From a virus, in IMG/VR virus record IMGVR_UViG_3300026078_000023, positions 1 through 64,000 of that record: 64,000 bases of DNA, one strand, 5' to 3'. This document shows, piece after piece, positions 2,204-20,623 of this stretch. Both the position numbers and the translations under genes were made by a program. The stretch's first letter is position 1. Each line of letters begins with the position of its first letter. Below the pieces are notes generated by a model. That model was given only the letters and a program-made list of their open reading frames with translations, searched no databases and was not told the origin of the DNA.

Positions 2204-2986
2204 CTACCGGACGTTGTGGTCGCGCCGCGCCGACTTGCTCTGGGGCGGGCGGTAGAAGCGGTCGATCGCCGCCTTGGCGAACCACATGCTCATGAGGCCG
2301 TCCGAGGTGCTGTACTTCGGGTACAGGCGGATCTCCCGCTCGAGGACGCACCAGGCGCAGTCGTGACCCGTGCCGTGCCCCTCCCACTCGCCCGAGGCGA
2401 AGGCCCAGGCCCGGTTGGCGAACTCGACCTCGATGCCGGGGAGGCCGAACTGCGGGTCGGCCTTGTTGCGGCCGGTGGTGTGGGCCTCGATCTTGGGCCA
2501 CCACGGGAACGCCGACTTGCCCTTGCGGACCCACTCGATGAGCGACTCCTGGTAGGCGTTGTTCTCGACCATCACGTACTGCAGGTTCGCCACGGTCGCG
2601 CACACGTCGCTGAGGACCTCGGCCGTCTCCGGCGACGTCCAGTTGCCGTTGCGGGCGACCACCGGGACGCGCAGGCCGGTCAGCGGGTTCACGGCGACGG
2701 CCGTGATGAAGTTGCCCGGGCGGTTGGCGGAGCTGAGGTCGACCCCCACGTAGGTCGGCCAGGCCCGCCGGATGACGTCGGTCAGGACCAGGGCCGGCTG
2801 CCAGCACGCCTCGAAGCTGGGGAACTTGCGGTCGCCCGGCTTCATGACCTGCATGCGGAACCCCTGGTGCCACATGGCGGAGCCGCCGATCTCCCGCCCG
2901 CTGGCCTTCTTCTGCAGGACGTCGAGCGGGAACTTCTCCTCCCACCGGGGGAGCTCAGGGAGCTGGAGCTTGGAGACGGCGCGCAT
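2204..2986 (-). CDS. terL: terminase large subunit, stand-alone C-terminal RNase H-like nuclease half
   Basis: WEEKFPLDVL linker, YVGVDLS, VMVENNAYQESL, TTGRNK, YPKYSTSDGLMSMWFA; no Walker motifs. Confidence 0.8.
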   Translation of the reverse strand: MRAVSKLQLPELPRWEEKFPLDVLQKKASGREIGGSAMWHQGFRMQVMKPGDRKFPSFEACWQPALVLTDVIRRAWPTYVGVDLSSANRPGNFITAVAVNPLTGLRVPVVARNGNWTSPETAEVLSDVCATVANLQYVMVENNAYQESLIEWVRKGKSAFPWWPKIEAHTTGRNKADPQFGLPGIEVEFANRAWAFASGEWEGHGTGHDCAWCVLEREIRLYPKYSTSDGLMSMWFAKAAIDRFYRPPQSKSARRDHNVR

Positions 2987-3214
2987 CGGCTCACAGTCTA
3001 CCGAACACCAGCCACCGGTTCGGGTCGTCCTCCCGGACGGCCTCCCTGGCGCACGGGCCGCGCCACCAGTACCGGTTGCACGCGAGGCAGCAGGCGACCC
3101 AGCACGGCGAGGCGTGGAGGCACCCGGGCGGGCCGACCAGCGCGTCCATCGCGGCGCCGCACCGGCACCGGCGCTCGTCGGGGCCCAGGCGCTCCACGAC
3201 CGGGGATGGTAGCG

Positions 3215-3370
3215 CTACAGGCGCAGCACGCGCCCGGCGAGCTGCCACAGCGTGACGAGCAGGCCGCAGGCGTAAGCGATCCGCCCGAGCTCCTGCACCT
3301 TGCCGTTCGACGCCAGCGCGTACACGAGGACGCCCACCACGCACACGAGGACCGGGATGATGATCAGCAT
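3215..3370 (-). CDS. small two-TM membrane protein
   Basis: MLIIIPVLVCVVGVLVYALASNGKVQELGRIAYACGLLVTLWQL; two hydrophobic segments. Confidence 0.6.
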   Translation of the reverse strand: MLIIIPVLVCVVGVLVYALASNGKVQELGRIAYACGLLVTLWQLAGRVLRL

Positions 3371-3446
3371 CCGGGCAGCATGGGGCCGCTGAACACCTTT
3401 AGCCAGCTGCGGATCTGGCCCCGATTTCTTTAATTTAGGTACCCGT

Positions 3447-3653
3447 TCAATCCAGGACCCATTCCCAGTGCTCGTCACAGTAGGCGTCGTTCCACACCGC
3501 GCACCACCCGAGCTCGCACAGGTTGACGGCGACTTCGTCCGGGATCGGCGCGCGCACGCGCACCCGGATCCATTCGCTCTGGCACACGACGTCACCGTCT
3601 GTCGAGAACTGACGAAGCGCCTGCAAGCCACCGAGCAACGCAGATATCGTCAC
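3447..3653 (-). CDS. hypothetical protein
   Basis: 68 aa, GTGA-coupled, lower GC. Confidence 0.5.
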   Translation of the reverse strand: MTISALLGGLQALRQFSTDGDVVCQSEWIRVRVRAPIPDEVAVNLCELGWCAVWNDAYCDEHWEWVLD

Positions 3654-4057
3654 TGGCCGACGTCCCCGGACGCGCGCCGCCGCGCCATGGCCTCGAGGCC
3701 CTGCTGCACCTGCAGCGCCTCGGCCTTGAGCATGGCCCTGCCGGCGACCGACGGGTCGGGGGTGAACCAGTCCGGGAAGGGCGCCACGGCGACCTCAAGG
3801 CACACCTCGCCGACCTTCACCGCGCCGGCGGCGTCGCCGCTGCGGACGGCCGCCAGGGCAGCGCACCACGGGCAGTGGGCGTCCGCGACGATGACCGCGC
3901 ACGCGAACTCCCCGGTGCTCATGTCGACGACTGAGCACCAGCAGTGGCTGCGCTCGGCCGCCGCCTGGTGCTCCGGGGTGACGAGCTCGGCCGTCAGCTC
4001 CCGGACGTGGTCCTCGCCGCGGTGCAGGTGCAGGAACCGGCGCTCTTTCACGGGCAC
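3650..4057 (-). CDS. hypothetical protein with CxC and CxxC motifs
   Basis: HCWC...HCPWC. Confidence 0.55.
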   Translation of the reverse strand: MPVKERRFLHLHRGEDHVRELTAELVTPEHQAAAERSHCWCSVVDMSTGEFACAVIVADAHCPWCAALAAVRSGDAAGAVKVGEVCLEVAVAPFPDWFTPDPSVAGRAMLKAEALQVQQGLEAMARRRASGDVGQ

Positions 4058-4401
4058 GGGATCTCCTGCCCCTGGTCCCCGAAGCAGTGGCTGACCGCCG
4101 CCGCCCCGCCGGCACCACCCCTGGCGCCGCCGTTCGCGCTGGGCGGGGCGTTCTCGCCGGCCTGGCCCGACGCCCCGCCCCCGCCGTCAGCGCCCGCCGT
4201 GGCCCCTCCTGCTTCGCCGTCCCCGGCGCCCCGGACCCTGGCCAGGGGTTCGCCCCCGCCCTCGCCGCCGAACCCGCCGCCGAACGGAGCCGCGTCCGCG
4301 CCGCACCCCGCCAGGGCCAGGCCGACGATGAGGGCCGCCACCAGCAGGGCGGCGACCTTCCAGGCCCAGTCCACCCAGCCGGTCATTTCGTTTCTCGCCA
4401 T
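4048..4401 (-). CDS. Gly-rich putative lipoprotein
   Basis: Hydrophobic stretch ending LALAGC (lipobox); GGAGG RBS. Confidence 0.6.
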   Translation of the reverse strand: MARNEMTGWVDWAWKVAALLVAALIVGLALAGCGADAAPFGGGFGGEGGGEPLARVRGAGDGEAGGATAGADGGGGASGQAGENAPPSANGGARGGAGGAAAVSHCFGDQGQEIPCP

Positions 4402-18918: not shown

Positions 18919-18940
18919 CTGCGTCTCCCTTCGGTTGTGA

Positions 18941-19411
18941 CTACGTTCTGCTGCTCGGCACGGTCGCAGTCTCGCCCGCGGCGAGCCACTCGTCGATGTG
19001 CAGGAGCCATTTCAGGACCATGGCGCCGCACTGGACCAACTCCTTGCGCAGGTCAGCGAGCGACCGCGCGTCGAGCGCCTCCGCGACCTCCTCCTCGAAC
19101 ACGTCGGCGTGCGTGAGGATCCCTTCTCGGTCCGCGCGGTCACACCAGGACTGCGCCATCTTCCGGTACGTCTCGCGCGAGTGCGACGTGGCGACCCCGT
19201 CCGGGAGGCGCATGCTGTTCGGGTGCAGCCCCTTGGCCCGATCGAGCTCCGCGACGATGTCCCGGACGATCTCGGCCTGGGAGGTGGTCACCATGGAGCG
19301 ACCGTTGCGGCCGCCGGCCCCGCAGATGACGTCCCCCGTCCCCTCTTCGACCATCACCCAGTGCTGCCCAGCTGGGCCACCGCAGCCGGCGCAGACATCT
19401 CCGCCGCTCAC
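18941..19411 (-). CDS. MazG-like all-alpha NTP pyrophosphohydrolase domain protein
   Basis: FEEEVAEA...LRKELVQCGAMVLKWL. Confidence 0.55.
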   Translation of the reverse strand: MSGGDVCAGCGGPAGQHWVMVEEGTGDVICGAGGRNGRSMVTTSQAEIVRDIVAELDRAKGLHPNSMRLPDGVATSHSRETYRKMAQSWCDRADREGILTHADVFEEEVAEALDARSLADLRKELVQCGAMVLKWLLHIDEWLAAGETATVPSSRT

Positions 19412-19773
19412 GACAGCGTCGCCTTCGCGGCCGCCTCGACCGCCTTCTGGACGTTCTCCGCCATGCGCTCGGTGGCGTAGTCGCCGACCAGCTTGCCGGC
19501 CCTGAACAGGCGCCCGCGGATGTCCTCGTCCACGTGCCCCTCGCAGATGGCCGCGAGCGCCCCCTGGACCATCACCGACGCGACCGCCGACGCGTCCAGG
19601 CTGCGCTTCTGGATCTTGAAGTGCTCCTCCGTCTCCTTGGTCAGCTCCATGGCCTGGTGCAGGACCGGGTCGATGAAGGCTCGGACCTGCTCCTCGGTCA
19701 ACTCGGGCAGCAGCTTCCCGACATCCTGGGCCAGGCGGTGCGCCCGCTCGGCCCTCGTCTCTTGTTCTCCCAT
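19408..19773 (-). CDS. hypothetical protein
   Basis: 121 aa, leaderless start after the motif. Confidence 0.65.
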   Translation of the reverse strand: MGEQETRAERAHRLAQDVGKLLPELTEEQVRAFIDPVLHQAMELTKETEEHFKIQKRSLDASAVASVMVQGALAAICEGHVDEDIRGRLFRAGKLVGDYATERMAENVQKAVEAAAKATLS

Positions 19774-19792
19774 GCCCGACGTGTTGGCCGGG
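19774..19792 (-). promoter_or_regulatory. CCGGCCAACA motif (leaderless)
   Basis: CCGGCCAACA-CGTCGGGC-ATG(19773), right after the terL ATPase stop. Confidence 0.7.
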
Positions 19793-19801
19793 CCCCCGAC
19801 C

Positions 19802-20623
19802 TCAGGGGTCGGCCAGCATCTCGGCCACGTCCCGGGAGCACTCCTCGAGGTAGTCCCGGCCGACGTTGTGGGCGTCCTGCTCGTACCCCGAGAGGTCCTC
19901 CTTGACCCGCTGCTCGAGCCAGCAGAAGTCGGGCCGGGCGCGCATCTTGTAGGAGGCGTCGTCGCCGTCCCATGGGGTGGCGATCCAGACCACCTTCCCG
20001 CCGGGCTCGAGGCGGCTGAGCCACTTCACCTCGACCAGCCAGGTGGTGTGGTTGCGCTTCTCCTCGGTGGTGCTGTTCTCGGCGTCGACCACGTCGTCGA
20101 AGATCATCGTGGTCGCGCGCGATCCGGTGCCCATCGTCTTCACGCCGCGCGCCTCGACGGTCGGGTCTACGGCGTGCCCGACGCGCTCGACGAGCAGCTT
20201 GTGGTCGGTCCACAGGTTGCCCGGGACCACCTCCGGGAACACGAGGTTGTAGAGCGGCGACTCCATCACCCGCTTCGAGGCCTGCATGCGCAGCTTCGCC
20301 GCGTCATCACCGGAGCAGATCACCTTGATGCGCTCCTGCTGGTTGATGCCGGTCAGGTACGCGGCGAGGGGGACGATGAGCGAGGACGTCTTGCCGTGAC
20401 CGAACGGAGCGAAGATCCCCGCGTGCATGCCGCGCGACCAGGCGTAGTTGATGTGAGCGATCCACCACAGGTGCACGTGGTGGTAGCGCATCGGGTTACC
20501 GACGTCGTCGCGCACGGCGAACGCGCCGAACTTGTGGAAGTGCTCGCGCGCGCCGCGGACGAGCCTCTCGCGCGCGGCCCACAGGACGCGCTCCTGGCTG
20601 ACGACTGCGGCTTGGGCGCCCAC
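19802..20623 (-). CDS. terL: terminase large subunit, stand-alone N-terminal ATPase half
   Basis: Walker A FAPFGHGKTS, TGSRA, Walker B MIFDDVVD, motif III IATPWD; stops before any nuclease domain. Confidence 0.85.
   Translation of the reverse strand: MGAQAAVVSQERVLWAARERLVRGAREHFHKFGAFAVRDDVGNPMRYHHVHLWWIAHINYAWSRGMHAGIFAPFGHGKTSSLIVPLAAYLTGINQQERIKVICSGDDAAKLRMQASKRVMESPLYNLVFPEVVPGNLWTDHKLLVERVGHAVDPTVEARGVKTMGTGSRATTMIFDDVVDAENSTTEEKRNHTTWLVEVKWLSRLEPGGKVVWIATPWDGDDASYKMRARPDFCWLEQRVKEDLSGYEQDAHNVGRDYLEECSRDVAEMLADP

Follow-up and report, generated by a model that had tools for sequence, protein, structure and literature searches.

A phage large terminase encoded by two distant genes and probably assembled in trans

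Can the large subunit of a phage terminase (TerL) be made as two separate polypeptides? The question is raised by IMG/VR record IMGVR_UViG_3300026078_000023 (G000 here), a 93,289-bp contig from an uncultured tailed phage, of which bases 1 to 64,000 form the window. Instead of the canonical single polypeptide, it encodes two minus-strand open reading frames (ORFs) with their own starts and stops, 16,815 nucleotides (nt) apart (Table 1). One, of 273 amino acids (aa), carries a TerL ATPase (TerL-N, P0002), and the other, of 260 aa, carries a TerL nuclease (TerL-C, P0001). An earlier reading of the window, made from its letters alone (the sequence-only reading), had described the two as complementary, nonoverlapping, and intact halves of one terminase. 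Our analysis bears this out: both genes are real, intact, conserved, co-occurring, and complementary. We consider it likely that the large terminase of this phage is made as two polypeptides and that TerL is assembled in trans.

Both halves proved to be terminase proteins by profile and by fold. TerL-N matched PHROG 38, the "terminase large subunit" family, at profile positions 262 to 468 (E value of 9e-26), and TerL-C matched the same family at positions 488 to 659 (E value of 1e-6), so that the two occupy consecutive stretches without overlap. Pfam gave no match for either protein, and none of the Terminase_6N/6C, TerL_ATPase, TerL_nuclease, Terminase_3, and GpA_ATPase models scored above its gathering threshold in the two halves or elsewhere in the genome; this lineage has diverged too far for the Pfam TerL models to recognize it. 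Among solved proteins, T7 gp19 and PhiV-1 TerL are the nearest in sequence (E value of 2e-9). Searches of GenBank phages with tblastn returned only distant matches for the ATPase half, to Bcep781 (29% identity) and T7-like phages, and none for the nuclease half at an E value of 1e-5.

The catalytic motifs are those named by the sequence-only reading. TerL-N has a Walker A motif, GHGKTS (K78), a Walker B motif, IFDDVVD (D176 and D177), and a coupling motif, IATPW; K78, D176/D177, and W218/D222 around ATPW are invariant in an alignment of 29 sequences. TerL-C has GVDLS (D83), VENNAYQ (E141), and a terminal D229, an acidic triad that is invariant among 39 aligned sequences. AlphaFold2 single-chain models were built on the family alignments, and their folds were compared with the PDB by VIA. 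The TerL-N model (predicted local distance difference test score [pLDDT] of 93.7) matched residues 2 to 244 of PhiV-1 TerL (Z score of 21.6 and root mean square deviation of 3.0 over 231 aligned residues), residues 100 to 336 of T4 gp17 (Z score of 18.2), and residues 4 to 233 of the P74-26 ATPase (Z score of 17.5). The TerL-C model had an overall pLDDT of 84.4, with values of 59 to 71 for residues 1 to 50; its residues 49 to 247 matched residues 232 to 416 of D6E TerL (Z score of 17.1) as well as the nucleases of G20c, P22, T4 gp17 (residues 359 to 561), SPP1, and herpesvirus terminases (Z scores of 15 to 17). TerL-N therefore has the ASCE/RecA-like fold, Walker A lysine, Walker B acidic pair, and coupling motif of a TerL ATPase, and TerL-C has the RNase H/RuvC-like fold and three acidic metal ligands of a TerL nuclease.

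Placed one after the other, TerL-N and TerL-C align end to end with the one-chain relatives P0076 and P0077 (541 to 542 aa). The junction alignment puts the break between "...NSPDPNYQ" and "KFILPLSVRWP...", and beyond the homologous region only 15 residues are left over on TerL-N and 5 on TerL-C. The 15-residue extension of TerL-N forms a helix (residues 258 to 271) that is not present in P0076 or P0077 and is kept as DY..E....N..EML in closer relatives. Residues 1 to 48 of TerL-C are equivalent to residues ~245 to 292 of PhiV-1 TerL and ~255 to 291 of T7 gp19, and they keep a conserved RGFR-type motif common to the fused relatives. They make up the last part of the ATPase lid together with the interdomain linker, and their poor modeling in isolation is as expected for a segment that packs against a partner. 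The cut thus falls inside the lid, ~50 residues ahead of the nuclease domain, and not at the classical ATPase/nuclease hinge. On this point the sequence-only reading, which had the nuclease ORF beginning at the usual linker, needs correction: ~48 residues of ATPase lid and linker travel with the nuclease chain.

The split is shared by related phages. In G001 (92.8 kb), the ATPase and nuclease halves are 69% and 78% identical to those of G000 and lie 15.6 kb apart; in G002 (82 kb), they are 42% and 41% identical and 13.6 kb apart. The nuclease half lies 2.5 to 2.8 kb upstream of the portal gene in both. The ATPase half of a third relative, G003, lies close to one contig end, and its nuclease half would be expected just beyond the other. 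G000, G001, G002, and G003 are circular permutations of one gene order. Sixteen further viral contigs were searched with profiles for both halves; 13 of them carry both halves on the same strand, and 3 carry a one-chain TerL. In 11 of the 13, the gaps are 5.5, 8, 10.5, 13, 13.9, 14.2, 15.2, 15.4, 15.4, 15.8, and 18 kb. Together with G001 and G002, this makes 15 independent related contigs from different samples with the split.

Two of these contigs have compact arrangements. In G013 (L053; IMGVR_UViG_3300038424_000156, positions 714 to 2281), the ATPase ORF (714 to 1499) and the nuclease ORF (1496 to 2281) are in different frames and share 4 nt (GTGA). This form is probably translationally coupled and is possibly the ancestral state of the split. 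In G009 (L038; IMGVR_UViG_3300048802_000015, positions 190 to 2740), the order is reversed: the nuclease half, a 265-aa homolog of the small terminase subunit (TerS) candidate described below, and the ATPase half follow one another within 2.6 kb. The lid part of the G009 nuclease half is out of frame with the rest (one TAG), perhaps through a sequencing error. With the order reversed, any joining in cis is excluded, whether by cis-splicing or by bypass.

Stand-alone halves also turned up in wider searches. A word-indexed search found 25 ATPase-only clusters (223 to 341 aa, with 23 of the 25 at 261 to 295 aa) and 40 nuclease-only clusters (147 to 271 aa, most at 249 to 271 aa), and several of both kinds are on contigs of 82 to 93 kb. 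An exhaustive HMMER search gave 1,869 matches; the best 150 included 147 newly listed representatives, namely, 78 ATPase-only, 61 fused, and 8 other forms, so the split is frequent in this TerL family. We built a FastTree phylogeny of 159 ATPase cores with the tail columns left out. The clade that contains TerL-N (Shimodaira-Hasegawa-like support of 99) has 37 rows, comprising 35 ATPase-only proteins, 2 artifacts, and no fused form. In the rest of the tree, fused and split forms interleave, and at least 12 changes of state are required by the starred branches alone. How many of the splits arose independently is uncertain because some short forms may be truncated gene calls.

P0070 (ENA, 583 aa), which belongs to one of the ATPase-half clusters, was considered as a fused form and rejected: its ATPase half is cut ~40 residues early and joined to an extracytoplasmic function (ECF) sigma factor, and it is most likely a chimeric assembly. 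The sigma factor part is of an actinobacterial ECF type (P0071) and may hint at an actinobacterial host. A scan of genome contigs gave a single weak match, in an uncultured Actinomycetes metagenome-assembled genome. Inteins also occur in the family. P0075, G015, and G021 have a LAGLIDADG-endonuclease intein between IG and TPW of the ATPase coupling motif and not at the break, and some ATPase-only halves are also intein bearing, with open frames of 676 to 743 aa.

How might two such chains work? TerL-N would supply the RecA-like ATPase core, and TerL-C would supply the last ATPase-lid helices, the interdomain linker, and, after these, the RNase H-type nuclease. The two would be expressed separately, from different gene contexts, and the N-terminal lid helices of TerL-C would dock noncovalently on the TerL-N core, as in fragment complementation. 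Docking would rebuild a protomer of the T7/PhiV-1 type, and a portal-bound ring of such protomers could then translocate DNA and cut the concatemer. Work on P74-26 TerL found that its nuclease domain, when isolated, can neither bind nor cut DNA and that both ATP hydrolysis and ring assembly require lid residue R235 (PMC5389665). A nuclease chain on its own should therefore depend on the ATPase chain.

Several points weigh against assembly in trans. The binding of TerL-N to TerL-C, and its manner, are inferred. Helix 258-271 of TerL-N is conserved only in closer relatives and so is no universal docking element. The ratios of nonsynonymous to synonymous substitution (dN/dS) between G000 and G001 are only moderately low (0.50 and 0.41), a weakly informative measure here since the extreme GC bias at third codon positions (GC3, 95%) depresses dS. 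The putative promoter of TerL-C consists of a -10-like hexamer only. Finally, because the Pfam TerL models miss both halves, the silence of Pfam elsewhere in the genome says little against a very divergent second TerL.

The two proteins could instead divide the labor without forming a stable heterodimer, with TerL-N alone making up a translocating ring, as phi29 gp16 does, and TerL-C acting as a free maturation nuclease that is recruited solely for the initiating and headful cuts. Such an arrangement would suit two genes in different transcription contexts, whose distances and even order vary freely, and it would agree with the behavior of the P74-26 ATPase domain, which grips DNA and binds it by itself (PMC5389665). 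We nevertheless regard it as distinctly improbable. The ~48 lid/linker residues of TerL-C, with their RGFR-type motif, are sensible only beside an ATPase core, and the P74-26 findings on the lid and the inert isolated nuclease speak for physical association.

The halves might also be rejoined, by protein trans-splicing, RNA splicing, translational bypass, or excision of the intervening DNA. They are colinear and on the same strand, natural split-intein TerL genes exist (AceL-TerL and GOS-TerL; PMC11766414), and intron-split terL genes are common in some phages (PMC12880540). However, no device for rejoining was found, in agreement with the sequence-only reading, which had seen no split-intein ends, intron remnants, or flanking direct repeats. 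Pfam detected no intein/Hint domain in either half, Rfam detected no family, intron or other, at an E value of ≤1 in bases 1 to 26,000 of the window, and neither direct nor inverted repeats were found at the half boundaries. The fragments of atypical TerL split inteins are 25 to 37 plus 104 to 115 residues long (PMC11766414), and the extensions of 15 and 5 residues at the break are far shorter, which counts against protein trans-splicing. With extensions of this size and no Hint match, the pair is not a "fractured" gene of the split-intein kind, in which the N-extein is followed by an N-intein and the C-extein is preceded by a C-intein that ends in Asn, with Cys, Ser, or Thr next; with no Rfam match, ~32 ORFs in between, and the order reversed in G009, neither is it a gene interrupted by a group I or group II intron. 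In addition, TerL-C begins at a stop-bounded start of its own and TerL-N ends at its own stop, the G013 ORFs overlap in different frames, and the inteins of the family sit away from the break. Rejoining is thus very hard to credit.

Nor do we give any appreciable weight to an artifact or to decay, that is, a misassembly (a concern of the sequence-only reading) or a defective element that keeps the remains of a broken terL and has its real terminase elsewhere: the contig is metagenomic and without terminal repeats, and a HerA/FtsK-like ATPase gene lies nearby, but the layout recurs in 15 independent contigs from different samples (13 of them from the profile search, checked for both halves), the catalytic residues are invariant, CheckV completeness is 100%, and the HerA-like gene, for which tblastn found no homologs in G001 to G003, is not core.

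No intact terL, which the sequence-only reading had recognized as fatal to its proposal, was found elsewhere. Across the whole genome, PHROG 38 matched only TerL-N and TerL-C, and no further large ORF resembles TerL. The HerA-like ATPase has an N-terminal Walker A motif, GQSQRAGKTT, and a DEAW-like Walker B motif, and it was examined as a possible TerL. It has a weak PHROG TerL match (E value of 0.014) and was rejected, since the protein atlas places it with the HerA/DUF87 type and tblastn found no homolog in G001 to G003; the latter result indicates that it is not core and is probably accessory rather than a packaging motor. Its atlas neighbors are viral clusters without a Pfam family (feature scores of 0.95 to 0.98), and the more distant ones are HerA/DUF87/FtsK-type ATPases (feature scores of 0.90 to 0.91; structural template modeling [TM] scores of 0.5 to 0.6).

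Table 1. Positions of the terminase genes and neighboring features in G000
Feature	Position	Strand	Basis
TerL-C (P0001), lid/linker (residues 1-48) and RNase H-fold nuclease (residues 49-247), 260 aa	2204-2986	-	PHROG 38, AlphaFold2, fold match
Noncoding gap upstream of TerL-C, 228 nt	2987-3214	-	Sequence read
Intervening block, ~32 same-strand ORFs	3215-19801	-	Gene call, PHROG matches
TerL-N (P0002), stand-alone TerL ATPase, RecA-like core, 273 aa	19802-20623	-	PHROG 38, AlphaFold2, fold match
HerA-like ATPase, 513 aa	22131-23672	-	Protein atlas
TerS candidate, 247 aa	23900-24643	-	Synteny
Portal, then Mu-F-like head protein and major capsid protein	91381-93132 (portal)	-	SPP1_portal, PHROG 64
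Sheath, tube, tail, and baseplate genes	After major capsid protein, minus-strand order on circular map		
Helicases, SSB, UvsX-like recombinase, SbcCD	After tail/baseplate block, minus-strand order		
TerS candidate and HerA-like ATPase	After replication/recombination genes, ahead of ATPase half		
Nuclease half, seven small ORFs, portal again	Closing part of circular minus-strand order		

The two genes lie in different settings. TerL-N stands at the end of the replication/recombination block, and its GTG start is 4 nt past the stop of an upstream gene (20628 to 21269). The sequence-only reading had given this spacing correctly and had called the upstream gene a lysozyme gene, a label that found no support: Pfam gives no match, and the best PHROG match is to an endolysin (E value of 0.022). 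TerL-C occupies the usual slot of terL, with the portal gene ~2.3 kb downstream on the circular map. A -10-like hexamer, TAGACT (3000 to 2995), is 8 nt ahead of its ATG (2986) and is a candidate leaderless promoter. The hexamer and spacing are as the sequence-only reading had them; a strict sigma-70 scan found no two-hexamer promoter at the start of TerL-C or TerL-N. The gap upstream of TerL-C contains a 76-codon open frame without ATG, GTG, or TTG whose translation is rich in Arg, Ala, Gly, and Pro; the frame looks noncoding, and the gap is thus probably regulatory. The motif CCGGCCAACAC occurs in four minus-strand copies (19771 to 19793, 14485 to 14507, 6800 to 6822, and 4414 to 4436), each just upstream of a gene start, and the first of these directly follows the TerL-N stop.

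The G000 contig is linear, without end repeats, and has a GC content of 71%. A gene call based on GC3 and codon usage gave 145 genes, of which 142 are minus strand, and no tRNAs were found within the 64-kb window. The sequence-only reading had counted about 30 genes between the halves, with a DNA modification operon among them, and the 32 ORFs of the intervening block agree with this: they include a 7-deazaguanine module (QueE, GTP cyclohydrolase, and a DpdA-like transglycosylase), a ParB-like protein, a DNA methyltransferase, and many unknowns. By tblastn, part to most of the block is also present in G001, and in G002 most of its content differs, so it behaves as a plastic accessory region. 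The ParB-like nuclease-domain protein (12088 to 12735, minus strand) has a G002 homolog (28583 to 29020) immediately downstream of the nuclease half, a position that suggests a possible link with packaging or DNA modification.

A TerS candidate had also been proposed by the sequence-only reading. The ATPase half of G001, G002, and G003 has a homolog of this gene close upstream, and the G009 homolog lies between the halves (pairwise E value of 2e-7), so that synteny with the ATPase half is conserved; no Pfam or PHROG family matched the protein, and the protein atlas gave only a weak Terminase_5 lead. By its synteny, it is a plausible TerS.

A cut in this place might have consequences for the phage. 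With the lid on the nuclease chain, TerL-N could be inert until TerL-C was made from its separately promoted late module, and the split could then serve as a timing switch that makes the motor conditional; we hold this idea only tentatively and think it rather unlikely. The split might also hide a whole TerL surface from terminase-sensing defenses such as Avs. One point divides the competing models of the terminase motor, and the P74-26 and phi29 models place its origin inside the ATPase ring, via the lid. A natural and widespread cut of TerL inside the lid, with distant genes for the two pieces, offers a ready-made test of whether the covalent tether matters. In addition, such genomes will be mishandled by terminase-based phage detection, completeness estimates, and TerL phylogenies.

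Among known terminases, T7 gp19 (model 4bij) and PhiV-1 TerL (8dgc chain E) are the nearest by sequence and fold, with the same motifs in the same order and Z scores for the PhiV-1/T7-type fold of 21.6 (ATPase) and 15.7 (nuclease). The T7-type TerL, however, is one polypeptide of ~586 aa, in contrast to the 273 plus 260 aa encoded 16.8 kb apart here. The phi29 protein gp16 is also a packaging ATPase that functions with no catalytic nuclease on its own chain. DNA cutting is not required in phi29, which is not known to have a separate nuclease partner; here, an intact nuclease gene always co-occurs with the ATPase gene. A terL in pieces is also found in the AceL-TerL and GOS-TerL split inteins, in Jug phages with their group I introns, and in cyanophage Mic1, whose TerL has two inteins; those pieces are rejoined into one chain, whereas neither intein nor intron was found here.

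The closest parallel is with the Arthrobacter cluster AT phages (genus Kelleziovirus). We found no paper on the mechanism of an intein-free split TerL, and matches to "split" in the literature concerned scaffolds, polymerases, and introns; Klyczek et al. (2017) remark on the two-gene TerL of cluster AT in one sentence (PMC5513430). In GenBank, gene 4 of KellEzio (KU647626) is annotated as "terminase large subunit, ATPase domain" (260 aa) and gene 10 as "nuclease domain" (328 aa), and Kitkat, BeatusComedenti, and DanielleIgnace have the same ATPase domain annotation on gene 4. The sequence-only reading, which held that known splits are usually adjacent or mediated by introns or inteins, had overlooked these phages. 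As here, their two-gene TerL is free of inteins and introns, intact, and on one strand, with the ATPase gene first and the nuclease gene nearer the portal, and KellEzio is cut at about the equivalent place, 25 to 35 residues past the coupling motif. However, KellEzio gp4 belongs to a Mu-like TerL lineage (FP_Mushu and BalMu-1), unlike the T7/PhiV-1-like TerL here. Compared pairwise, the ATPase halves give an E value of 0.11 and the nuclease halves one of 1e-5 across 65 residues; given the former value and the different lineage, common descent of the two splits is not supported by the sequences. The KellEzio genes are 1.8 kb (5 genes) apart in a 59-kb siphovirus, compared with 16.8 kb (~32 genes) in a 93-kb sheath-bearing phage. 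A two-gene TerL has thus already been annotated in cultured phages, and the phage described here has an extreme form of it, in which the halves belong to different gene modules and are separated by 16.8 kb.

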